A stretch of DNA of 62,531 nt, counting the filler, from Dehalococcoidia bacterium (GTDB lineage: Bacteria > Chloroflexota > Dehalococcoidia > DSTF01 > JACRBR01): NCBI GenBank assembly GCA_041494685.1. It is 3 parts of 3 records of this genome, joined end to end, with 100 filler letters (N's around TTAATTAATTAA, not from the genome) between each part and the next. Parts side by side here need not be neighbours in the genome. Positions count along the whole stretch, not along the records: positions 25,591 to 51,015 come from JBGQBE010000050.1; 2 more parts are not named here. The stretch is one strand, 5' to 3'. Position numbers and translations under genes: made by a program. The notes under the pieces were generated by a model. That model worked only from the letters and a program-made list of their open reading frames with translations. It ran no database searches and was not told where the DNA came from. Positions 558-51,115 of this stretch are shown in pieces (the first letter of the stretch is position 1; each line of letters opens with the position of its first letter).

Positions 558-1802
558 CTAGAACATGTTCGGACAGTACGGCGCGTACTCGGTGCGCCAC
601 ATCGCATCCCAGAGCCGCAGCGGCGCGTCCGGCGCCGCCTCGGCGCGGCCGTAGCGCACGGCGTTCGCCGGCGACACCTGGCCGTAGAGCAACTGCGCCA
701 GCGCGGAGATATCGAGCGAGAGCTGCGGCGCCTCTTGCGTGCGCGTGACGCGCGCGCCCTCGGGCCCCGCCTCCAGCGCCCAGCGCCCGGCGTTCCACGG
801 ACACATCTCGTCCCGCACATCGAACACGACGCGCCCCTCGTGCCCGTACGGCCGCAGCGGAAGCGCGCGCTCGAGGTCGATGATCCGGCCCAGGATGTGG
901 TCGCGGTGTGTCGCGTTCAGCTCGCGCGGGTCCAGCAGCACGTGCGGCGCCGGGTCATCGACCGGCGCGTTGTCGACGATGACGCGCGCGGCGAGGTCGA
1001 ACGTCTTCAGCAACTCCCAGATCGCGCGGTAGGCGCCCGGCGTCAGCCAGGCGTAGTCGCGCACCATGACACGCTGGCCGGGGCCGCCGCTGTCGCTGAA
1101 CATGCCCGCATGCCAGCGCGCACCCCACGCGACGTAGCCCTTCGGCTCGCCGCCCTCTTCGTAGATCGAGACGATGCTCGGGCCCCACGGCTGCGGCTCG
1201 CCCGGGGCGCCGCCGATGCCCAGCGTCTGGCCCTCCCACATCACCGGCGCGCGGCGCAGGGGGCCGTTCCGGGGCTCGATGTACTCGTCGTAGACGCGCT
1301 GTAGCACCGGCAACTCGTCCTTCGACCCCTCGCGCCAGGTGCCTGTGGGCTTCGGCATCGACGGGGCGAAGTTGATCAGCTTCGGGTCGATGGTGTAGCG
1401 GACGGCCGACGCGCAAACCGCGTACCCGTAGCGCTGGTAGATCGCCGCGACTGAGGCGAGCAGAATGGCGATCGGCTGCCACTGCTGCTCGTAGCGGCGT
1501 TTGAAGTCGGTCTCCATGATCTTGCGCAGGTGGCCGCGGCGACGGAACTGGGGCAGCGTGCCGACGAAGGTGACGCCGGCGGCGTGCGCCTTCGCGCCGT
1601 TCAGCCGAACCACGAGCGGGAACGCGCCGTACGCGGTCGCGAGCTCGCCGTCCTCGAACGCGCAGAGGGACCAGTCCGGCAGCAGCGGGACGCCGTGCGA
1701 CGGGTCGAACGGCTCGCCGGTGTAATTGCCGAAGACGATCGCCGGCACGCGGTAGAACGCCGCGGTCTCTTCTTCCCGATACGGACGGATCTCCAGTGCC
1801 AT
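558..1802 (-). CDS. Eis-like GNAT acetyltransferase with C-terminal SCP2-like domain
   Basis: VGTLPQFRRRGH acetyl-CoA motif, AIYQRYGY, C-terminal PWNAGRWALE...LAQLLYG...PYCPNMF. GGAGG RBS before ATG 1802. Confidence 0.85.
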   Translation of the reverse strand: MALEIRPYREEETAAFYRVPAIVFGNYTGEPFDPSHGVPLLPDWSLCAFEDGELATAYGAFPLVVRLNGAKAHAAGVTFVGTLPQFRRRGHLRKIMETDFKRRYEQQWQPIAILLASVAAIYQRYGYAVCASAVRYTIDPKLINFAPSMPKPTGTWREGSKDELPVLQRVYDEYIEPRNGPLRRAPVMWEGQTLGIGGAPGEPQPWGPSIVSIYEEGGEPKGYVAWGARWHAGMFSDSGGPGQRVMVRDYAWLTPGAYRAIWELLKTFDLAARVIVDNAPVDDPAPHVLLDPRELNATHRDHILGRIIDLERALPLRPYGHEGRVVFDVRDEMCPWNAGRWALEAGPEGARVTRTQEAPQLSLDISALAQLLYGQVSPANAVRYGRAEAAPDAPLRLWDAMWRTEYAPYCPNMF

Positions 1803-4717: not shown

Positions 4718-5908
4718 CTACGCCGGGTGCGGCGACAGCACGAGCGTGCTGTGGTGGTCGAGCACGCCGCCGTTACCGGTGACGAGCACGACGTCGTGCT
4801 TCGCAACCTGCCGTTCACCGCCCTGGCCGCGCGCCTGGATGACGCCCTCCGACAGCGGCGTCATACCCCACATGTAGTACGCGCTCAGCTGGCCGCCGCC
4901 GGTGTTCGTCGGCAGGCTGCCGCCCGGGCCCAGCTTGCCGTCGGCGACGAAAGGGCCGCCTTCGCCCTTCGCGCAGAAGCCGTAGTCCTCCAGCGTCACC
5001 AGCACGGTGTAGGTATAGCAGTCGTACGCCTGCACCACGTCCACGTCGCCGATGCCGATGCCCGCCATCGCGAACGCCTTCTCTTTCGCCATCGGCGCGC
5101 CCGTCTGCGTCTCCACGTCCCAGCCCTTGCGGCGCATGTCGCCCGGATGCCCCTGCCCCATCCCCCAGACGTACGCGGGGGGCTGCCGCAGCGACGGCGC
5201 CTCCTCGGCGCGGGAGACGATCACGGCGACGGCGCCGTTGGAGACGAGGCAGCAGTCCAGGAGGTGCAGCGGCTCGGCCACCCAGCGCGACGCGCGGTAG
5301 TCTGCGAGCGTGATCGGCTCCCGGTGCTCGGCGATCGGATTGAGCGCCGCCCACTGGCGCTCGGCGACGGCGATCGCGCCGAGATGGTCGTTCGTGGTGC
5401 CGTACATCGACATGTGGCGGCGCGCCGCCAGTGCATAGAGAGCGTTGACGCCGAAGACGCCGAACGCGGGGTAGAGCCCGCCCATGCCGCTCGGGCGCGC
5501 CGAACGTCCGCTGCCGGCGTACGCGGCGCCGCCGCCGCGGCCCTGCTGGAGCGGCGCGTCGGCGAAGACGCAGACGACGTGGTTGGCCAGACCATGGATC
5601 ACGTTCATCGCGGCGTATTGGACCATGATGTTCGCGGTTGCGCCGCCGGCGTTCATGCTCGACAGCAGCCGGAGATTCGTGAGGCCGAGATAGTTCTGCA
5701 GGCCGACGCCGCCCATAGCGCCCAGCGGCGAGATGCCGGGGTTGACGAGCAGGCCGTCGATATCTTCCTTGCGCAGTCCCGCGTCGGCGACGGCGCGCTG
5801 CACCGCCTCGGCCGCGAAGTGCGAAGCGTCGTGTCCGTAGACGCGCCCCATCTCGCTGATGCCGAGGCCGGTGATCGCCGCCCTGCCCTTGAGTTCGCGT
5901 CCGTCCAT
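4718..5908 (-). CDS. Thiolase-superfamily protein (SCP2-thiolase/Ltp2-like, probable retro-aldolase)
   Basis: AAITGLG, PLHLLDCCLVSNGAVA, QAYDCYT, NTGGGQLSAYYMWG. Adjacent to DUF35. Confidence 0.85.
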   Translation of the reverse strand: MDGRELKGRAAITGLGISEMGRVYGHDASHFAAEAVQRAVADAGLRKEDIDGLLVNPGISPLGAMGGVGLQNYLGLTNLRLLSSMNAGGATANIMVQYAAMNVIHGLANHVVCVFADAPLQQGRGGGAAYAGSGRSARPSGMGGLYPAFGVFGVNALYALAARRHMSMYGTTNDHLGAIAVAERQWAALNPIAEHREPITLADYRASRWVAEPLHLLDCCLVSNGAVAVIVSRAEEAPSLRQPPAYVWGMGQGHPGDMRRKGWDVETQTGAPMAKEKAFAMAGIGIGDVDVVQAYDCYTYTVLVTLEDYGFCAKGEGGPFVADGKLGPGGSLPTNTGGGQLSAYYMWGMTPLSEGVIQARGQGGERQVAKHDVVLVTGNGGVLDHHSTLVLSPHPA

Positions 5909-22960: not shown

Positions 22961-23989
22961 TCAGTCGAACACGAACTCCGCGACCGTGCGCAGCGTGGCA
23001 GGGGGCCCGCCGACGAGCAGCGCCGTTACGACCGTGCGCTTCCACTCCGCGAGTTCATCCTTGACCTTGCCGCGCGGACCGATCAACGCGATGTCTTCCA
23101 CCATCCGCGTCGGGATCGCTGCCATCGCGTCGCGCGGGTGTCCCGCGAGGTAGAGATCCTGGATCTTCCGGCACTCCGCCTCGTAACCGAGACGGACGAA
23201 GACCTCGTAGTGGAAGTTCTGGCTGCGCGCGCCCATGCCGCCGACGTACAGCGCGATCATCGGGCGCAGCATGTCCGCCGCGGCCTCGACGTCGTCGTTG
23301 ATGATGACCGAGACGGCGGCGGGCACGGCGAAGTCGTCAGCCGTACGCCGCGCGCCGGGGCGCGCGAATCCTTCGGCAAGGGCGGCGCGATAGAACGCGT
23401 CGCTCTTCGGCGAGAAGAACACCGGCATCCAGCCGTCAGCGATCTCGGCGGCCATGGCCACGTTCTTCGGGCCTTCCGCGCCGAGGTAGATCGGGATGTC
23501 GGTCCGCAGCGGATGGACGATCGACTTCAGCGGCTTGCCGAGCCCGGTACCGCCCGTGCAGGGCACCTGGTAGTGCCGGCCGCGGAACTCCAGCGGCTGC
23601 TCGCGCGCGACGATGCGGCGGATGATCTCGACGTACTCCCGCGTGCGCTCCAGGGGCCGCGGATACGGCTGCCCGTACCAGCCTTCTACCACCTGCGGGC
23701 CCGACGCCCCGAGACCCAGGATGAAGCGGCCGCCGGACAGGTGGTCAAGCGTGATCGCGGACATCGCCATGGCGGCGGGCGTGCGCGCGGAGATCTGGGC
23801 GATCGACGTGCCGAGCTTCACGCGTGACGTGCAGGCGCCCCACCAGGCGAGGGGTGTCAGGCAGTCGGAGCCGTACGCCTCCGCCGTCCAGATCGAATCG
23901 AAGCCGAGCCGTTCGGCCTCAGCGATGCTCTCTTCGATGCCGGCGGGCGGGCCCGACGTCCAGTATCCGGTCGCCAGTCCGAGCTTCAT
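22961..23989 (-). CDS. LLM-class F420-dependent oxidoreductase
   Basis: WTAEAYGSD, ARTPAAMAM...LDHLSGGRFILGLGASGPQVVEGWYG. Confidence 0.92.
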   Translation of the reverse strand: MKLGLATGYWTSGPPAGIEESIAEAERLGFDSIWTAEAYGSDCLTPLAWWGACTSRVKLGTSIAQISARTPAAMAMSAITLDHLSGGRFILGLGASGPQVVEGWYGQPYPRPLERTREYVEIIRRIVAREQPLEFRGRHYQVPCTGGTGLGKPLKSIVHPLRTDIPIYLGAEGPKNVAMAAEIADGWMPVFFSPKSDAFYRAALAEGFARPGARRTADDFAVPAAVSVIINDDVEAAADMLRPMIALYVGGMGARSQNFHYEVFVRLGYEAECRKIQDLYLAGHPRDAMAAIPTRMVEDIALIGPRGKVKDELAEWKRTVVTALLVGGPPATLRTVAEFVFD

Positions 23990-25131
23990 GCGCCGCCCTG
24001 CCCGTCCGCCTCGTCCAGCGAGCCTGACATCTGCCTGACTGTCTCGACGTAGCCCTGCACCATGTCCAGGAGCACGTCGCGCGCCGGGCGGACGGTGTTC
24101 ATCATGCCGACGATCTGCCCGATGGGGGTGCCCAGAAGCTCCGCCGCGCGCGAGTGGGGCTGCGCGTCGGCCGCACGGTGCATGCGCGAGATCGCCTCTG
24201 CCGTCGCCATGAACTGCAGGGGCATCGGCAGCGTGCCGGGCGACTCGGGCGACTCCCACGCGTCCGTCCACGCCGTGCGAAGCTGGCGGGCGGGCTTCCC
24301 CGTCATCGCGCGGGAGCGCACGGTGTCGCGGGAGGTCGCGCGCAGCACCTTCTCCATCGCAGCCGGCTGCAGGTCGCTCTCCTTCGTGGCGAGCCAGACG
24401 CTGCCCGTCCAGACGCCCTGCGCGCCGAGCGCAAGCGCCGCCGCGATCTGCCGCCCGGTAGCGATGCCGCCCGCGCCCAGCACCGGCGCCGGCGCAACCG
24501 CATCGACGACCTGCGGCAGCAGCACCATCGTGGAGATCTCTCCCGTGTGGCCGCCGGCCTCGGTGCCCGACGCGACGATGATGTCGACGCCCGCTTCGCG
24601 CTGCTTCACCGCCTGCTCCGGCGTGCCGACGAGCGCTGCCACCGGCACGCCCTGCCGGTGCGCGCGCTCCACCACATCCAGCGGCGGCGGTCCGAGGGCG
24701 TTCACCAGGAGCCGGATCGGGTGGCGCAACGCGATGTCGACCTGCGACTGGCCGCTCGCCGGCACCCAGCCGAGCAGCGACTCGGTGGCGGCAACGCCGT
24801 CGGGCAGCTTCGGCACGTCGTACTTCGACAGCGTCTCCTCGATGAAGTCGCGGTGACGCTGCGGGATCATCGCCTCGAGCTGCTCCTTCGTGGCGTCGGC
24901 AGCGCCCTCCGCAAGCTTCGCCGGCATCACGACGTCCACGCCGTACGGCTTGCCGTCGACGTGCTCGTCGATCCATGCGAGCTCGATCTCCAGTTGCTCC
25001 GGCGAGAACGCCAGCGCGCCGAGCACGCCCATCCCGCCCGCGCGCGAGACGGCCGCGACCACGTCGCGGCAGTGCGAGAAGGCGAAAATCGGGAACTCGA
25101 TGCCGAACTGGTCGCAGAGTGGCGTCTTCAT
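23986..25131 (-). CDS. Nitronate monooxygenase / FabK-like flavin oxidoreductase
   Basis: PIFAFSHCRDVVAAVSRAGGMGVLG, GTEAGGHTG, AGGIATGRQ. Confidence 0.9.
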   Translation of the reverse strand: MKTPLCDQFGIEFPIFAFSHCRDVVAAVSRAGGMGVLGALAFSPEQLEIELAWIDEHVDGKPYGVDVVMPAKLAEGAADATKEQLEAMIPQRHRDFIEETLSKYDVPKLPDGVAATESLLGWVPASGQSQVDIALRHPIRLLVNALGPPPLDVVERAHRQGVPVAALVGTPEQAVKQREAGVDIIVASGTEAGGHTGEISTMVLLPQVVDAVAPAPVLGAGGIATGRQIAAALALGAQGVWTGSVWLATKESDLQPAAMEKVLRATSRDTVRSRAMTGKPARQLRTAWTDAWESPESPGTLPMPLQFMATAEAISRMHRAADAQPHSRAAELLGTPIGQIVGMMNTVRPARDVLLDMVQGYVETVRQMSGSLDEADGQGGA

Positions 25132-25150
25132 GGTCTACTCCTTCAGCGGT

Positions 25151-25490
25151 CTAGTACGACCGCGGCAGCCCCAGGTCCTGCTCCGCGACGTAGTTCAGGA
25201 TCATCTCCCGGTTCAGCGGCGCCGTCTTCAGCACGCGCGCACCGTTCCATAGCTGCGCCAGGCCGGTCTCCTCGGCGAAGCCGATGCCGCCGTGCGTCTC
25301 CAGCGACGCGTCGACGGCCTCCAGTGCAACGTCCGCGGCGAGCAGCTTCGCCTGGTTGGCGTAGTTGCCGACGAGCCCGGGGTTGAGGTTCTGGTCGAAG
25401 GCCCACGCGGCGCGGTACGTCATCAGCCGCGCCGCTTCGAGGTGGATCTTCGCTTCGGCGAGCGGGTGCTGCACGCCCTGGTACGCGCCG
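25151..25490 (-). CDS. Acyl-CoA dehydrogenase, C-terminal fragment (5' end lost in gap)
   Basis: GAYQGVQHPLAE...AARLMTYRAAW...THGGIGF. Confidence 0.85.
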
Positions 25491-25590
25491 NNNNNNNNNN
25501 NNNNNNNNNNNNNNNNNNNNNNNNNNNNNNNNNNTTAATTAATTAANNNNNNNNNNNNNNNNNNNNNNNNNNNNNNNNNNNNNNNNNNNN
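25491..25590. other. Artificial contig-joining linker (N44-TTAATTAATTAA-N44)
   Basis: N runs flank a 12-mer with stops in all six frames. Genes are truncated on both sides. Confidence 0.97.
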
Positions 25591-26058
25591 GATAGCGTCC
25601 GACGTCCACAGCTCCGACTGGGTCAGCGGCTCCCTGTGTTGGGCAAGCAATGTGACGGGCTCGCGCTGTACCTTGTTGTGGTAGACGACCACCTGGTCGT
25701 CCTCGTAGTGGACGGCGTCGGGCGCCTTCGGGTATGGGTGCAGATACTTGCCGTCCACGACGTGGATGTGGGCGTGCGCCTGGCTCTGCATCGCGTGGTG
25801 GCCGAAGTTGCTAACGAGGCGGAATCCGTTGCGGCAGTGCTGGCGGCCCATCGCCACCGCCGCTCGTGAGACCTTCGCCAGGATGTCCGAACTCCACAGC
25901 TCGCCTTGGTAGAGGTGGACGCGCGGCACGGCGAGCAGCATGACGTCGGCCCAGTCCAGCACGTTGTGGAAGACGATCACGTCGTCGTCTTCGTACTCGA
26001 TGCGGGCGGGGGCTTTGCGCTCGACGATGTCGCAGAAGACACAGTAGTAACGGGACAT
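25591..26058 (-). CDS. HIT-family protein with tandem duplicated HIT domain, 3' end truncated by gap
   Basis: CVFCDIV, YEDDDVIVF, HAHIH triad. A second copy starts at HYEDDQVVVYHN. Confidence 0.82.
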
Positions 26059-26169
26059 CACCCTCATTCTAGCGCAGGCTCTCGCAGGACGTGTTATGAG
26101 CGTGTGAACGAGGCGTCAACGTCCGCTCGCGGCCTAGCCCCTCGCGGACGGCGGGCCTATACTCCGGCC

Positions 26170-27453
26170 ATGGCCGACGTCCGCCCCTTCCGCGCGCTGC
26201 GCTACGACGCCGCGCGCGCGAACCCCGCACTCACGATCGCCCCGCCGTACGACGTGATCTCGCCGGCGCACCAGGCAGCGCTGTATGAGCGCAGCGAATT
26301 CAACATCGTGCGTCTGGAGTACGGCGAGCAGCGCCCGGGCGACACCGCCGCCGACAACCGCTACACGCGCGCTGCCCGCGACCTGGCGACATGGCGCGAT
26401 GCCGGGGTGCTGGCTCACGACGCCGCACCGGCGATCTACGCCTACCGGCAGGAGTTCGAGTGGGAGGGCGCGGTCCACGCGCGCATGGCCTGCTTCGCGG
26501 CCGTCCGGCTGGAGGAGTGGGAGAAGGGCGTGATCAAGCCGCACGAGCACACGCTCTCCGGCCCGAAGGCCGACCGGCTGGACCTCCTCCGCGCCACGCG
26601 CACTCAGGTGAGCCCGGTGTACAGCGTCTACCGGCCGCGCGACGGATCGCGGGCCGTGCTGGCGATGACAGGCGACGTGCTGTACGACTTCGCCGCGGAC
26701 GGGCAGCGCCACGTGCTGAGCGCGGTGCGCGACGCCGGGGCCCTACGCGCGTTCGCGGAGTACCTGGCCGCGTGCGACGTCTACATCGCCGACGGGCACC
26801 ACCGCTACGAGACGGCGCTGACGTATCGCAACGAGAGCCGCGCCGCAGCGGCGCAGTGGAGCGGCGACGAGCCGGAGAACTTCGTCCTGATGGCGCTAAC
26901 CGACGCGGCCGATCCAGGACTGCTCGTGCTGCCGACGCACCGGCTGATCACGAAGCCGTCGCTCCCCGGCGACGCACTGTCACGCATCGCGCGGTACTTC
27001 GACATGGAGGAGATCGCGGCTGGTGACGCGACGGCGCGGCTGCATGCTGCGCGCGACGTGACCGCGTTCGTCGCGCTGGGCATCGAGGCCGGGCGCGCGC
27101 ACTTGCTGCGGCTGCGCGACCGCGCGGGAGTCGAGGCGCTGATGCCGGCTGCGGAGCCGGAGGCGTGGAAGCGGCTGGACGTGAGCGTTCTGCAGTACGG
27201 CGTCCTGGCGCACGTCTTTGGCATCGATGACGCGGCGCTGAAGGCCGGCGGCGCGGTGTCGTACACGCAGGACGCAGCGGAGGCCGCCGCTGCGGTGCGG
27301 TCGGGCGCGGCGCGCGCGGCGTTCCTGCTGAACGGCACGCGCATCGACCAGGTGCTGGACGTGGCGGACGCCGGCGGCCGGATGCCGCAGAAGTCCACGT
27401 ACTTCTATCCGAAGCTGCCGACGGGCCTCGTGCTCAACTGGCTCGGGGCGTAG
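26170..27453 (+). CDS. DUF1015 family protein
   Basis: MADVRPFRALRY, APPYDVIS, PHEHT, YIADGHHRYETA, MPQKSTYFYPK. Confidence 0.92.
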   Translation: MADVRPFRALRYDAARANPALTIAPPYDVISPAHQAALYERSEFNIVRLEYGEQRPGDTAADNRYTRAARDLATWRDAGVLAHDAAPAIYAYRQEFEWEGAVHARMACFAAVRLEEWEKGVIKPHEHTLSGPKADRLDLLRATRTQVSPVYSVYRPRDGSRAVLAMTGDVLYDFAADGQRHVLSAVRDAGALRAFAEYLAACDVYIADGHHRYETALTYRNESRAAAAQWSGDEPENFVLMALTDAADPGLLVLPTHRLITKPSLPGDALSRIARYFDMEEIAAGDATARLHAARDVTAFVALGIEAGRAHLLRLRDRAGVEALMPAAEPEAWKRLDVSVLQYGVLAHVFGIDDAALKAGGAVSYTQDAAEAAAAVRSGAARAAFLLNGTRIDQVLDVADAGGRMPQKSTYFYPKLPTGLVLNWLGA

Positions 27454-27571
27454 GTTCTTAGCGCCACGTTTGCACCGCCTCCGGCTTTGCCGTACAACTG
27501 ACGGAGCCTCGTTCACAGGCACGACGCTGCACGCCCGGCCGCCCGCCGCGGCCGTATGAGGAGCCCGCATC

Positions 27572-28825
27572 ATGGCAAAGAAGGTAGTGCTCGCCTACTC
27601 GGGCGGGCTCGATACGTCCGTCGCGATCCGCTGGCTGAAGGAAGAGCGCGGCTTCGACGTCGTCGCGCTCACGATCGACCTGGGGAACGAGAAGGACCTC
27701 CAGACCGTCGAGCAGCGGGCGATGCAGATCGGCGCGGTCAAGGCGATCGTGCGCGACGGCAAGCAGCCGTTTATCGACTACTTCGCGTTCCCAGCGCTGA
27801 TGGCCGGGGCGGTATACGAGGGCCAGTACCTGCTCGCCACGGCGATCGGCCGTCCGCTCATCGCGAAGATGCTGGTAGACGTAGCGCGCGAAGAGGGCGC
27901 GTCGGCGATCGCTCACGGCTGCACGGGCAAGGGCAACGACCAGGTGCGGTTCGACGTCAGCACGCAGGCGCTGGCGCCCGACCTGGAGATCGTCGCGCCG
28001 GTGCGGGAGCACCGCATGAGCCGCGAGGAGCAGATCGAGTGGGCGGCGGAGCGCGGCGTGCCGGTGCCGGCGACGAAGGCCAGCCCGTTCAGCACCGACG
28101 AGAACCTCTGGGGACGCAGCATCGAGGCAGGCGTCCTGGAAGATCCGTGGCAGTCGCCGCCGGAGGAGATTTACGCCTGGACGCGCTCGCCGAAGGAGCA
28201 GCCGGACACCCCGCGCGAGATCGAGATCGAGTTCTTGCATGGGCGTCCGGTACGGTTGGACGGACACGAGATGGACGGCGTGACTCTGGTGCAGACGCTG
28301 AACCAGTGGGCCGGCGAACACGGCGTCGGACGGACGGACATGGTCGAGGACCGGCTGATCGGCATCAAGTCCCGCGAGATCTACGAGGCCCCGGCGGCCT
28401 GGACGCTTCACAACGCGCACGAGGCGCTGGAGCAGATGACGCTCTCGAAGCCACAGATCCGCACAAAGAACATGCTGCGGCAGGAGTACGCGGACCTGAT
28501 CTACAACGGACTGTGGTTCACGGCGCATCACCAGGACCTGGCGGCGTACGTCGCCAGCACCCAGCGGCACGTGACGGGCACGGTGCGCATGCGGCTGCAC
28601 AAGGGGCAAGCGGTGGCGATTGGCAAGAAGTCGCCCAAGAGCCTCTATAGTTATGCGCTTGCCACGTACGACCGCGGCGACCAGTACGACCAGGGGAACG
28701 CCGTCGGCTTCATCAAGATCTGGGGGCTGCCGGTGGCGCAGCAGGCGCGCACGCAACTGCTTGCCGAAGGCGAAGCGCCGTTCCAGCTCGGCACATCGGA
28801 ACCTGAGAGCGGCAAGGGCAACTAG
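27572..28825 (+). CDS. argG: Argininosuccinate synthase
   Basis: KVVLAYSGGLDTS, AHGCTGKGNDQVRF, DENLWGRSIE, GIKSREIYEAP. Confidence 0.97.
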   Translation: MAKKVVLAYSGGLDTSVAIRWLKEERGFDVVALTIDLGNEKDLQTVEQRAMQIGAVKAIVRDGKQPFIDYFAFPALMAGAVYEGQYLLATAIGRPLIAKMLVDVAREEGASAIAHGCTGKGNDQVRFDVSTQALAPDLEIVAPVREHRMSREEQIEWAAERGVPVPATKASPFSTDENLWGRSIEAGVLEDPWQSPPEEIYAWTRSPKEQPDTPREIEIEFLHGRPVRLDGHEMDGVTLVQTLNQWAGEHGVGRTDMVEDRLIGIKSREIYEAPAAWTLHNAHEALEQMTLSKPQIRTKNMLRQEYADLIYNGLWFTAHHQDLAAYVASTQRHVTGTVRMRLHKGQAVAIGKKSPKSLYSYALATYDRGDQYDQGNAVGFIKIWGLPVAQQARTQLLAEGEAPFQLGTSEPESGKGN

Positions 28826-45785: not shown

Positions 45786-45850
45786 TTGACGAGCTCCGAT
45801 GATGAGCGCAGAATGGGGGATACCGAAACGCAACGAGTCGGTATCCCCAT
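45786..45850 (+). promoter_or_regulatory. Sigma70-like promoter with a long inverted repeat over the TSS and start codon
   Basis: TTGACG(45786)-N17-CAGAAT(45809-45814). GGGGATACCGA(45816-45826)-N11-TCGGTATCCCC(45838-45848) abuts ATG 45849. Confidence 0.6.
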
Positions 45851-47144
45851 GAAACGGATCGCCCTCATAGCTCCAGTCGTCCTGGCAGTGATTACATTAG
45901 CCGTATTGGCGTGCGGCTCGCCACAGACGGCGAATCAGGCGGCCACGCAGGCGGCGGGTACCGTTGCCACCGAAGCGGCGCGCCTGCGCATCGAGATGGC
46001 GGAGCCGTCCGCGACGTGCGACGGGCGCACACGCGAGGCGCGCATCTGGCTTGACAGTCTGCCCGCCAAGCCGGTCGCCAAACCGACCTCGCCTCCCCTG
46101 TATGTGTTCCCTGGCACGCCCGCGCCGACGCCGGTGCCGGCCGAAGGCCTGACGGGCCTTGAGTTTACGCTCAGATTCGACCCCGGCGTGGTCTGGGTAC
46201 AAAACAAGGCCGACGTAGCGCTCGGCGCCGACCTTCGTGCCGCTGCGGGAGCTGGCGCGGTTGGAGAGTTCCTCCTCCCTCCGCCGCGGCTTGATAACTA
46301 TGAAGGGACGGTGATGGCCGGCGCCGTGATGCTCGGGACGACGGGCGCGGTGAATCCGTCGGTTGCGGGCAAGTCGATCTTGCTGATAACGGTGGGGCTG
46401 CTGCCGGTCGGTGAGGGGAAGACGAAGCTGACGTTGAGCGGCGTGAGCCTGCTAGCGAGCAGCTACTACGCGTACCCATCGGTGGCGGTGAGTGACGCGA
46501 CGCTGGAGGTCGCGGGGCCCTGCGCCAAGCGGGACACACCGACGCCGTATCCGAAGGCCACGGCGACGCCCGTGCCCCCGCCGCCCGGCACGCCGTCGTC
46601 GCCGCCGCAACTCGCCGCCTCACCCGTCGCGATCACCCCCGTTACAAGCGGCGTCGCCGCGCGCCTCGATTGCCCCGCAGACTTCGCCACCTACCGCGAC
46701 ACAAAGAGCACCTTCTCTGTGTGCGGGCCGACATGGCTCGAAGGACGAGCCGGGATCGACGACGTCGGCGCGCCCCTCATCAACCTGGGCACACCACCGG
46801 GATCGCAAGAGCCAGGGGTATTCGTTTCCGTGCAGGTGACTTCGCGCGGCACCTTCCCGGATGAGGCCCAGGTAGCCAAGTTGTGTTCGATAGGACTTGT
46901 GCCAGCACAGAGCTTCGGCGAGGAGGTACACGTGACGGTCGCGGGGCTAAGTGCCGTCGGGTGCCATGTCGTGGGCGAACCTCACGCGACCGAAGGCCCG
47001 CTCGAGGAGTTCAGCCTAACCGCTCTCCTGCCGAACGGCAGCCCAGGCTCGTACTTGAATGTGGTCGTGACGTGGAGAACGCGAGACACTGGAGCTAAAG
47101 CCCTGATTGACCAGATGTTGAGCACGATCGTCGTGGGTAAATGA
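45849..47144 (+). CDS. Lipoprotein with cohesin-like domain, Pro/Thr linker and PsbP-like C-terminal domain
   Basis: Lipobox VLAC. Cohesin-like GLTGLEFTLRFDPGVV...LLITVGLLPVGEGKTKLTLSGVSLL...VSDATLEV. C-terminal FATYRDTKSTFSVCGPTW...IDQMLSTI. Confidence 0.7.
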   Translation: MKRIALIAPVVLAVITLAVLACGSPQTANQAATQAAGTVATEAARLRIEMAEPSATCDGRTREARIWLDSLPAKPVAKPTSPPLYVFPGTPAPTPVPAEGLTGLEFTLRFDPGVVWVQNKADVALGADLRAAAGAGAVGEFLLPPPRLDNYEGTVMAGAVMLGTTGAVNPSVAGKSILLITVGLLPVGEGKTKLTLSGVSLLASSYYAYPSVAVSDATLEVAGPCAKRDTPTPYPKATATPVPPPPGTPSSPPQLAASPVAITPVTSGVAARLDCPADFATYRDTKSTFSVCGPTWLEGRAGIDDVGAPLINLGTPPGSQEPGVFVSVQVTSRGTFPDEAQVAKLCSIGLVPAQSFGEEVHVTVAGLSAVGCHVVGEPHATEGPLEEFSLTALLPNGSPGSYLNVVVTWRTRDTGAKALIDQMLSTIVVGK

Positions 47145-48271
47145 CGCGAATCATTATCGCCGGCCTCTGCATCCTAGGAGCGATCGCGAGCGGTACGGCG
47201 ACCGTCGCCGCGTTGAGCAGTTCGTTCCATTACAAGTGGCCCTACCGGTGGAATACCTCGGCCGCTATCACGACTCTCCCATTCCAGGGCTTTCATGGGT
47301 GCTATCCAAATGGCGCCCCGGCCTACGAGTGCGTCGCGGCCTACGATTTGGTCGTCGCTAGTGGGAGCGTCGCGGCGGCAAATGAAGGAACGGCGTTCGT
47401 CCAGGGCGGCTTCCTTCCGGGTGAGTGCCGGAGCGACGGGCATTACGGCAACTTCGTCGATATCGACGGCGTGAGATACGGCCACCTGGACGCATTCGCC
47501 GGCGGCGTGGCTACGGGCGCGAATCTCCTCCAGGGTGACGAGGTTGGCGTGCAGGGATCGACCGGAAACGTGCTTCCCTGCCCGGGCGGCGTGCACCTCC
47601 ATTGGGAGTTCCTTGGCGCATCATCGGTGCCCGTGATCAACGGCGGATCGTCGACGTCGACCAACTCCGCGATCGGCGAGTACAGTGCATCCGGTGCCAC
47701 GCTGCGCACGTATTACCGCACCCACGGGAGTTGGAACGGCATTGGCTGGACGTACGAGCATTGTCCGGGTACATGCACGCTCGACATGACGGCCAACAAG
47801 ACGTGGGGCCGCATGCAGGACTTCCAGCACGATCCGGACGGCTTCGGCGGCACGTTCGACACGATCCATGTCGCAACTTGGGATCAGACGCACGCCTATC
47901 TCGTGGACTCGGTGTTCTGGCAGGCGTGGTCTGCGGGCGGCCAGGACCAGAACGGCGTTGTGCACCCGATCGGCATGGCCAAGGCGGAGCGCGGCGCATG
48001 TCCGCCGGGATCATCGGCTGAGTGTCTGTTCTACCAGCCGTTCCATCTGGGCTTCGTGTGGATGGATTCGTACACAGGGCGGCACGCGGTGTTCTGTCCG
48101 GACCTCAACGGCGACCGGATCGTAGACTTGACGGATCTCACGATCGAGGCTGGCCAATACCTCGAGCAGCCTGCGCCACCGGCCGTCGAGGTGGACGGGG
48201 AAGACGACCTCGTGGACATGACCGACCTCACCATCATGGCGGGCGAGTACCTGCATGACTGCCACGTGTGA
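47141..48271 (+). CDS. Secreted M23-family peptidase with LGFP-like repeats and C-terminal dockerin-like domain
   Basis: Signal peptide. YGNFVDI, YGHL, GDEVGVQGSTG, HLHWE. Duplicated DLNGDRIVDLTDLTIEAGQY / EVDGEDDLVDMTDLTIMAGEY. Confidence 0.75.
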   Translation: MTRIIIAGLCILGAIASGTATVAALSSSFHYKWPYRWNTSAAITTLPFQGFHGCYPNGAPAYECVAAYDLVVASGSVAAANEGTAFVQGGFLPGECRSDGHYGNFVDIDGVRYGHLDAFAGGVATGANLLQGDEVGVQGSTGNVLPCPGGVHLHWEFLGASSVPVINGGSSTSTNSAIGEYSASGATLRTYYRTHGSWNGIGWTYEHCPGTCTLDMTANKTWGRMQDFQHDPDGFGGTFDTIHVATWDQTHAYLVDSVFWQAWSAGGQDQNGVVHPIGMAKAERGACPPGSSAECLFYQPFHLGFVWMDSYTGRHAVFCPDLNGDRIVDLTDLTIEAGQYLEQPAPPAVEVDGEDDLVDMTDLTIMAGEYLHDCHV

Positions 48272-51015: not shown

Positions 51016-51115
51016 NNNNNNNNNNNNNNNNNNNNNNNNNNNNNNNNNNNNNNNNNNNNTTAATTAATTAANNNNNNNNNNNNNNNNNNNNNNNNNNNNN
51101 NNNNNNNNNNNNNNN
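51016..51115. other. Artificial contig-joining linker (N44-TTAATTAATTAA-N44)
   Basis: Identical to the linker at 25491-25590. Confidence 0.97.

Follow-up and report, generated by a model that had tools for sequence, protein, structure and literature searches.

A coupled gene pair for a PsbP-like lipoprotein and a divergent secreted M23 hydrolase in Dehalococcoidia

Why is the gene for a secreted, presumably wall-cutting enzyme placed directly behind the gene for a lipoprotein, and which part of the lipoprotein matters to the enzyme? These questions are raised by two genes on a 62,531-nucleotide stretch of DNA (hereafter the window) from the Dehalococcoidia bacterium assembly GCA_041494685.1 (Chloroflexota). 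Gene 1 encodes a lipoprotein with a cohesin-fold domain and a PsbP-like domain, and gene 2 encodes a secreted protein with an M23 metallopeptidase domain, an LGFP-like domain and a dockerin-like tail; together they form a translationally coupled two-gene envelope cassette. A first-pass annotation, made from the sequence alone, had taken the cohesin–dockerin link for the core of the system. Comparison of related loci gives a different answer. Because the cohesin is present in only 8 of 18 evaluable loci while a PsbP-like gene lies directly upstream of the enzyme gene in 18 of 19 distinct loci, the PsbP-like domain is the invariant partner of the enzyme, and the cohesin–dockerin link would be an optional second tether.

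Distribution and conserved gene order

Hidden Markov models (HMMs) for five modules were built from our own alignments, and all fetched loci were scanned with them. In a phylum-wide sample of 401 genomes, the full-length gene 2 family was found in one, the genome of the window; seven other matches covered the M23 part only, and the order was represented by just two further genomes. Matches to gene 2 at E <= 1e-15 occur in 19 of the 93 genomes of the order (48 of the 93 being at least 90% complete), and 14 of the 19, with 16 loci, have the full M23–LGFP architecture. All 16 genome loci have an anchored PsbP-like gene directly upstream of the M23–LGFP gene and on the same strand. Metagenomes contributed three distinct loci (L082 and L083, identical in sequence, were counted once), two of which have the upstream PsbP-like gene; the third, on a 1.9-kb contig, has a partial match (E 1.8e-4), so that the overall count is 18 of 19 plus this partial match. 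The conserved two-gene unit that the first-pass annotation had implied is thereby borne out.

The pairing was also read in reverse: 8 of the 9 two-domain genes (cohesin plus PsbP-like) in the order have an M23–LGFP gene next. The exception, in G402 (L056, 1498-2769, minus strand), is the sole two-domain gene with no M23–LGFP gene after it; its congener G401 has the full pair, and the frame downstream in G402 appears to encode a TetR-type regulator, judged by eye from its translated N-terminus. More distant PsbP-only paralogues occur without the enzyme at seven loci. A 457-aa frame in G404 (L059, 1048-2418, minus strand) carries a gene 1-type cohesin (E 6e-37), no PsbP-like domain, no M23 neighbour and no Pfam name.

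The modules around this invariant pair vary. Of the 18 evaluable loci, 10 lack the cohesin, among them that of G422, the closest relative of the window cassette. That the short, cohesin-less genes are artefacts of short flanks was considered and rejected, since in each of them a signal or anchor sequence immediately precedes the linker. At the other end of the cassette, gene 2 ends in a dockerin at 13 of 16 genome loci and at each of the three metagenome loci. The genome count includes G468, in which an apparent lack of the dockerin would have broken the cohesin–dockerin link; its tail is a dockerin that our own HMM missed at 1e-3, and that reading was rejected. In the three remaining loci, L035 (G471), L039 (G473) and L043 (G486), which belong to one family, a BNR/sortilin-Vps10-like domain replaces the dockerin; these keep the upstream PsbP-like gene and have no cohesin. 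Their M23–LGFP protein is about 680 aa long in G471 and G473, and the G486 gene is split over two frames. In G422 (L018, about 5713-5822) the M23–LGFP gene is likewise split over two frames, in its LGFP-like part; the coverage of this contig is about 1.3, and the frameshift may equally well be real or an error of sequencing.

The cassette looks accessory, as had been proposed. It is patchy within the order (14 of 93 genomes) and present twice in genomes G458 and G459, and its flanking genes differ among the three loci whose neighbourhoods were read. G461 (L038) has, besides its upstream cohesin–PsbP gene, a second PsbP-like lipoprotein gene directly downstream of the M23–LGFP gene (805-1479, minus strand), an arrangement that recalls orphan immunity genes. 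Within the window, GC content at third codon positions (GC3) is 77-79% in the cassette versus 84-95% in four neighbouring genes. The claim that the cassette is A/T-rich holds as a modest effect: its GC content is 65.2%, the mean over the window is 68.7% (sd 1.9), and among 277 equally sized windows it ranks in the bottom 4%.

Across loci, the amino-acid sequences differ from their nearest relatives by 28-73%. The PsbP-like domain has diverged more than the enzyme core in all 16 nearest-neighbour comparisons, and distances in the one part correlate with those in the other (Mantel r 0.68, reached in 0 of 5000 permutations). Correlated distances of this kind show co-inheritance, not co-evolution.

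Domain architecture of the two proteins

Relatives of gene 2 form 28 clusters in a large protein collection, and the AlphaFold2 (AF2) model of the window protein has a mean predicted local distance difference test score (pLDDT) of 74.4. The sole Pfam match in that protein, to Peptidase_M23 (PF01551), scores 25.6 bits, below the cut-off of 28.7; neither Dockerin_1 nor LGFP is matched at E <= 1, and NCBIfam adds nothing. Among 21 relatives, 18 match Pfam M23 (E <= 0.1, best 2e-10) and 7 match Dockerin_1 (PF00404; best E 2e-8). A profile search of the PDB with the gene 2 family found zoocin A at E 6.6e-8, along with a phage endolysin M23 domain, Csd3 and ShyA, and residues 26-174 of the model match M23 folds at Z 10-12.3. 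LasA and beta-lytic protease also appear in the list of fold matches.

Gene 2 shares with the M23 (LytM/lysostaphin) endopeptidases the H152-L-H154 motif, His115, Asp69 and the fold (Z 10-12). D69, H115, H152 and H154 are kept at all 16 loci and H52 at 15 of them; the domain is divergent but its catalytic residues are conserved. Unlike in the canonical HxxxD motif, the putative first zinc ligand and the Asp are separated by a variable loop: H52, the residue concerned, lies 17 residues ahead of Asp69 rather than four. The loop between them has 16 residues and is Cys-bounded in the window protein; its length varies among the loci, about half of which have the two bounding Cys.

In corynebacteria, LGFP domains are wall-binding modules. 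The LGFP domain at the C-terminus of Corynebacterium glutamicum MytA superposes on residues 174-326 of gene 2 (6swz, Z 8.8, root-mean-square deviation (rmsd) 2.7, 106 residues; 6sx4, Z 8.4), a moderate match, with low model confidence at residues 202-238; the predicted model thus has, to a moderate degree, the fold of a solved LGFP domain. Unlike that of MytA, the domain is carried by a peptidase and occurs in a different phylum, and the Pfam LGFP model (PF08310) matches 0 of 21 relatives at E <= 0.1.

Contig C46 of the same genome encodes a domain that scores above the Dockerin_1 cut-off and shares 46% identity (E 1.1e-8) with the gene 2 tail, and our family dockerin HMM recovers the other Pfam-called dockerins of the host genome. 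Dockerin-containing chains match the tail weakly in fold (Z 3.3-4.7), a usual result for a module of this size. Dockerins bind Ca through Asp or Asn at loop positions 1, 3, 5, 9 and 12. All five positions fit in repeat 1 (DLNGDRIVDLTD); repeat 2 (EVDGEDDLVDMTD) begins with Glu and is one residue longer than in relatives. By this positional rule the tail has the two tandem loop-helix repeats of a dockerin. In all 16 aligned dockerin-bearing loci the module is bracketed by two Cys (CPD... ...C-x-x, with CSD in G405 and CPS in G461), a pattern that suggests a disulfide clasp.

Gene 1 is harder to recognize by sequence. A word-index homologue search returned zero relatives; an exhaustive search was needed, which gave 57 representative relatives at E <= 0.001. 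Pfam finds nothing in the window protein (no Cohesin or PsbP match at E <= 1), and NCBIfam adds nothing. The Pfam Cohesin model (PF00963) matches 1 of 21 relatives, at 0.041, and a PsbP match occurs in just 1 of 21, at 0.029. Searched against PDB sequences, the gene 1 profile has no significant match, cohesin 3ghp reaching merely E 2.2.

Structure comparison, made on an AF2 model with a mean pLDDT of 79.7, is more informative. Residues 41-224 match the cohesin 4uyp_A at Z 15.2 (rmsd 2.3, 137 of 144 residues; VIA-align wide); ranks 1-17 of the fold ranking are all cohesins (Z 11.4-15.2), adhesin and pilin beta-sandwiches score 9.1 or less, and the top Foldseek matches are again cohesins (E 5.6e-7 and weaker). 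The model accordingly has the nine-stranded flattened beta-sandwich of cohesin topology. After a linker with pLDDT below 50 at residues 231-241 and 247-255, residues 276-431 form an alpha-beta sandwich of the PsbP/Mog1/DUF1795 type. Its closest folds in VIA-align wide are 3hlz (Z 11.0), PsbP (7pi0_P, 10.7; 2xb3, 10.6) and the immunity proteins TplEi (5h7y, 10.7) and Tsi3 (4luq_C, 9.7); the mycobacterial lipoproteins LpqN and MTC28 score 9.2-9.3 (LpqN 9.3), and Foldseek matches the domain to 1v2b_B at E 1.1e-4. Three of its Cys (C275, C292 and C346) are invariant among relatives and a fourth (C372) nearly so. A C-type lectin identity for residues 270-367, prompted by a PDB profile match at E 0.041, was dropped, the model fitting PsbP-like folds. 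For gene 1, then, the two domains are supported by fold (cohesin Z 15.2, PsbP-like Z 10.6-11.0) and not by Pfam on the window protein. All five domain calls of the first-pass annotation are backed at the level of fold or family, by predicted structures and relatives.

Read from ATG 45849, gene 1 begins with the N-terminus MKRIALIAPVVLAVITLAVLAC-G. An alternative, longer frame starts at TTG 45786; the hydrophobic N-terminus, however, begins at ATG 45849. Lipidation is possible because the genome encodes Lgt and LspA. Most of the closer gene 1 relatives have a Cys after the hydrophobic stretch, and more distant ones a plain membrane helix. Features of both genes are collected in Table 1.

Table 1. 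Positions in the window of the two genes and their parts
Feature	Position	Strand	Basis
Gene 1 (P0001), membrane-anchored lipoprotein, 431 aa	45849..47144	+	Open reading frame, translation; AF2 model
Signal peptide with lipobox-like VLAC-G (Cys22)	45849..45917	+	Sequence reading
Cohesin-fold domain, residues 41-224	45969..46520	+	Predicted-structure comparison
Pro/Thr-rich linker, residues 225-275	46521..46673	+	Composition; low pLDDT
PsbP-like domain, residues 276-431, four conserved Cys	46674..47141	+	Predicted-structure comparison; relatives
ATGA start/stop overlap	47141..47144	+	Direct reading
Gene 2 (P0002), secreted M23-LGFP-dockerin protein, 376 aa	47141..48271	+	Open reading frame, translation; AF2 model
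Putative Sec-type signal peptide, residues 1-27	47141..47221	+	Hydrophobic N-terminus kept in relatives; helix 2-16 in model
Divergent M23 metallopeptidase domain, residues 28-170	47222..47650	+	Pfam in relatives, PDB profile, fold
LGFP-like domain, presumed wall-binding, residues 171-318	47651..48094	+	Predicted-structure comparison
Duplicated dockerin-like module between two Cys, residues 319-376	48095..48268	+	Pfam in relatives; same-genome homologue

Direct reading confirms the ATGA overlap reported for the two genes, the ATG at 47141-47143 lying over the TGA at 47142-47144. The quoted motifs were all found as well: GLTGLEFTLRFDPGVV, YGN, YGHL, GSTG, HLH, HGC...ECVAAYD, and the repeats DLNGDRIVDLTDL and EVDGEDDLVDMTDL at 48095-48268. 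So were the flanks, a biotin-protein ligase with BirA-type domains and LepA, which adjoin the cassette and are both on the minus strand. The host assembly is 3.29 Mb and 97.6% complete, and both genes lie on its contig C50 (25591-51015 of the window). Runs of N at 25491-25590 and 51016-51115 are joins, so the window is at least three contigs end to end; a purD-like gene just after 51064 belongs to another contig and is no true neighbour of the cassette.

Restraint, anchoring or activation of the enzyme

From the folds, the conserved catalytic residues, the gene coupling and the strict co-occurrence described above, we infer a physical contact, an inhibition and an enzyme target. It is quite possible, if short of probable, that the gene 1 lipoprotein tethers the hydrolase and keeps it latent, as an immunity protein or a holster. 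The gene 2 product would be a Sec-secreted M23 zinc peptidase with an LGFP-like, presumed wall-binding domain and a C-terminal dockerin; the gene 1 product would sit on the outside of the cytoplasmic membrane, with the PsbP-like domain as the obligate partner of the enzyme. The lipoprotein would catch the enzyme while it emerges. Where a cohesin is present, the dockerin could plug into it as an optional second attachment point, and the PsbP-like domain would bind the M23–LGFP body and hold it inactive. Such latency would protect the producer's own peptidoglycan until the enzyme is released, to cut the wall locally or, more probably, to attack neighbouring cells. That the PsbP-like domain might be an inhibitor or immunity module had been suggested in the first-pass annotation as a possibility; it is compatible with our findings and is now the leading idea. 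The patchy distribution, the duplication and the extra PsbP-like gene lean towards immunity rather than a positive role.

The state of the host wall bears on this reading. A foreign target had been argued for on the ground that many Dehalococcoidia lack peptidoglycan synthesis. This premise fails here: the host genome has four matches to penicillin-binding protein transpeptidases, two to FtsW/RodA and eight to Mur-ligase domains, with a dcw-like cluster on contig C6. As the organism builds peptidoglycan, that argument for a foreign target falls away and, by the same token, a secreted endopeptidase needs control. Besides gene 2, the genome has five canonical M23 genes, so gene 2 is an extra one.

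A formal parallel is offered by the type VI effector–immunity pairs Tse3–Tsi3 and TplE–TplEi of Pseudomonas aeruginosa, in which an immunity protein neutralizes a secreted hydrolase and which share with our cassette adjacent genes and a PsbP/Mog1-like fold (Z 9.7 and 10.7). According to the available text of PMC3792639, Tsi3 has a PsbP/Mog1-like sandwich and neutralizes the secreted hydrolase Tse3. Unlike in those pairs, the enzyme here is an M23 peptidase, not a muramidase or lipase, and no secretion-system context is found in the window; the PsbP-like domain resembles Tsi3 and TplEi in fold only, with no detectable sequence relationship.

A contact between the two proteins was also predicted directly. 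The PsbP-like domain (residues 262-431) and the M23–LGFP part (28-318) were modelled as a complex from our own alignments in three runs, with three controls. The median of the interface score ipSAE was 0.35 (runs 0.00, 0.35 and 0.66), the best of the three controls reached 0.01, and this counts as weak support; partner pLDDT did not fall below 75, agreement between the runs was given as at least 0% of contacts, and no interface was reported. Of 157 solved complexes, 116 reach the pass mark, as do 2 of 215 mismatched pairs, counts that are rough since own alignments were used; passes at 0.60 or under come from just 18 of those complexes and from both of the mismatched pairs. Because synteny had made the guess likely beforehand, we take the predicted contact as a small increment.

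Several points weigh against latency. The three runs disagree (0.00 to 0.66), and, except for guesses that were likely in advance, a pass of this kind is wrong more often than it is right. Likeness of the fold is unspecific for function, because Tsi3 and TplEi are no closer to the PsbP-like domain than PsbP itself or the mycobacterial lipoproteins. Co-occurrence and correlated divergence also follow from the shared descent of neighbouring genes, and the loci, all from one order, are non-independent. Faster divergence of the PsbP-like domain may reflect just weaker constraint. The M23 model has pLDDT below 50 at residues 47-63, around the first zinc ligand, so the split H...D geometry is modelled poorly. 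Finally, a positive role for the lipoprotein, as anchor or activator, fits the synteny equally well.

That positive role is the main rival, and the present data do not separate it from restraint. The PsbP-like lipoprotein would recruit, position or activate the M23 enzyme for remodelling of the cell's own wall, like the lipoprotein partners of other wall enzymes, and would inhibit nothing. An organism that makes peptidoglycan could use such an autolysin; strict pairing and ATGA coupling suit any obligate partnership, the membrane anchor and long linker would put the enzyme in the wall, and the weak predicted contact is blind to the difference between activation and inhibition. A housekeeping role should, however, be widespread, and the cassette is confined to 14 of the 93 genomes of the order, stands in differing neighbourhoods in the three loci read and is duplicated in two genomes. 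The five canonical M23 genes, moreover, are available for housekeeping. We regard an activated autolysin as rather unlikely, and restraint by the lipoprotein as the preferred reading.

The cohesin–dockerin link and the meaning of the cassette

The two genes might also be merely co-transcribed, their products being envelope proteins with no physical partnership and the dockerin joining the enzyme to a wider cohesin network of the cell. In favour of this reading, the host genome has, outside genes 1 and 2, where there are none, 5 Cohesin matches (six-frame scan) and 9 Dockerin_1 matches, all at E <= 1, with cohesins on contigs C17, C28 and C38, and one of the three complex runs scored 0.00. Adjacency has nevertheless been kept in 18 of 19 loci despite 28-73% divergence, changed neighbourhoods and module swaps, namely the loss of the cohesin and, in three loci, the exchange of the dockerin for a BNR/sortilin-like domain, and we judge the absence of any partnership improbable. 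A second cluster with cohesin and dockerin matches lies on contig C38 of the host genome (about 23300-28000; loci L004, L005, L009 and L010); in it, an open frame of 352 aa combines a membrane helix at the N-terminus with a Dockerin_1 match and a weak match to cohesin (E 0.49), and the cluster may be another small cohesin–dockerin system.

The first-pass annotation had pictured a closed, one-to-one cohesin–dockerin scaffold at the core, with the PsbP-like domain as an add-on and a foreign target for a wall-less host. The cohesin fold and the dockerin are both real, and the dockerin appears to follow the cohesin next to it. The nearest dockerin neighbour shares cohesin status in 15 of 16 loci (reached in 35 of 20000 label shuffles), and the nearest enzyme-core neighbour in 11 of 16 (2288 of 20000 shuffles). 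The window protein, for example, is 72% identical in its core and 35% in its dockerin to that of G422, which lacks the cohesin, and 52% and 55% identical, respectively, to that of G406, which has it. Tracking of the neighbouring cohesin by dockerin subtype is suggestive on these sequence comparisons, in which the loci are kin and the segments short. The text available from rumen-metagenome studies, which reports dockerin-bearing wall hydrolases and a proposed "lyticome" (PMC6487960, PMC6403190), also speaks for a lytic scaffold.

As the core of the system, however, the link does not survive comparison. It is the cohesin that is missing, from 10 of the 18 evaluable loci and from the closest relative, and the PsbP-like gene that is never clearly absent. 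Five cohesin-less genome loci keep the dockerin; four such genomes hold 6-10 other Pfam cohesin matches each, some of them in open frames with several such matches, so the scaffold is not closed. For the same reasons, the gene 2 dockerin could serve a wider cohesin network. With full wall synthesis in the host besides, a closed scaffold aimed at foreign walls has become hardly credible. Equally far-fetched is a non-peptidoglycan substrate, with the enzyme as a general secreted scavenging protease (some M23 enzymes also cut proteins) and the PsbP-like domain as its folding helper: the divergent M23 domain, below the Pfam cut-off and with its first H...D split by a 16-residue loop, and the fold matches to LasA and beta-lytic protease allow for it, but the best sequence relatives of solved structure are wall hydrolases (zoocin A, phage endolysin M23, Csd3 and ShyA) and the adjacent domain resembles the wall-binding LGFP module.

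Non-cellulosomal cohesins and dockerins are widespread. Our cassette resembles such assemblies (Clostridium perfringens NagH–NagJ, 2ozn; the Archaeoglobus fulgidus cohesin, 2xdh; rumen hydrolases) in the cohesin fold of gene 1, which matches 2xdh at Z 13.3, and in the duplicated Ca-loop dockerin that gene 2 carries on a non-cellulose enzyme. Unlike in known cohesin–dockerin assemblies, the single cohesin of gene 1 is fused to a lipoprotein with a second, invariant partner domain, its gene overlaps that of the presumed dockerin client, and the host belongs to the Chloroflexota. In contrast to a cellulosome, there is one cohesin and a peptidase client, and Pfam and fold searches found no carbohydrate-active domain in either gene. 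As far as the accessible parts of these papers go, dockerins on lysozyme-like and DD-carboxypeptidase-like proteins have been reported from the rumen (PMC6487960), and a lytic complex built on dockerin-bearing wall enzymes, the "lyticome", has already been proposed in print (PMC6487960, PMC6403190).

Secreted wall hydrolases endanger the cell that produces them. Producer immunity to M23 enzymes can come from alteration of the producer's wall. M23 enzymes are also kept latent by occluding segments of the same chain, as the text available of a review describes (PMC9662197); neither "dockerin" nor "LGFP" turned up in a term search of its main text (0 occurrences each). Unlike this latency through a pro-region or domain of the same chain, the presumed restraint of gene 2 would come from another protein, the lipoprotein, acting in trans. 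In the literature searched, which omits most subscription journals, we found no account of an M23 gene coupled to the gene of a PsbP-like lipoprotein. More broadly, PsbP-fold lipoproteins could be an unrecognized class of trans-acting immunity or latency factors for M23 peptidases, fused to a cohesin in part of the lineage so that a two-contact, "holstered" enzyme is displayed on the producer surface and released against neighbours, a minimal "lyticome" of monoderm Chloroflexota; we put this forward as a doubtful generalization, though one worth stating.

The cassette is small, two genes in 2.4 kb, and its natural variants, which have or lack the cohesin and end in either a dockerin or a beta-propeller, are built-in comparisons. 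If the proposal is true, binding of the enzyme by a surface lipoprotein of its own gene would differ from the restraints described above as a solution to the danger that wall hydrolases pose to their producers. A cohesin–dockerin plug that serves a lytic enzyme rather than the digestion of cellulose would differ from them likewise, and the known uses of both the PsbP fold and the cohesin–dockerin pair would be widened.

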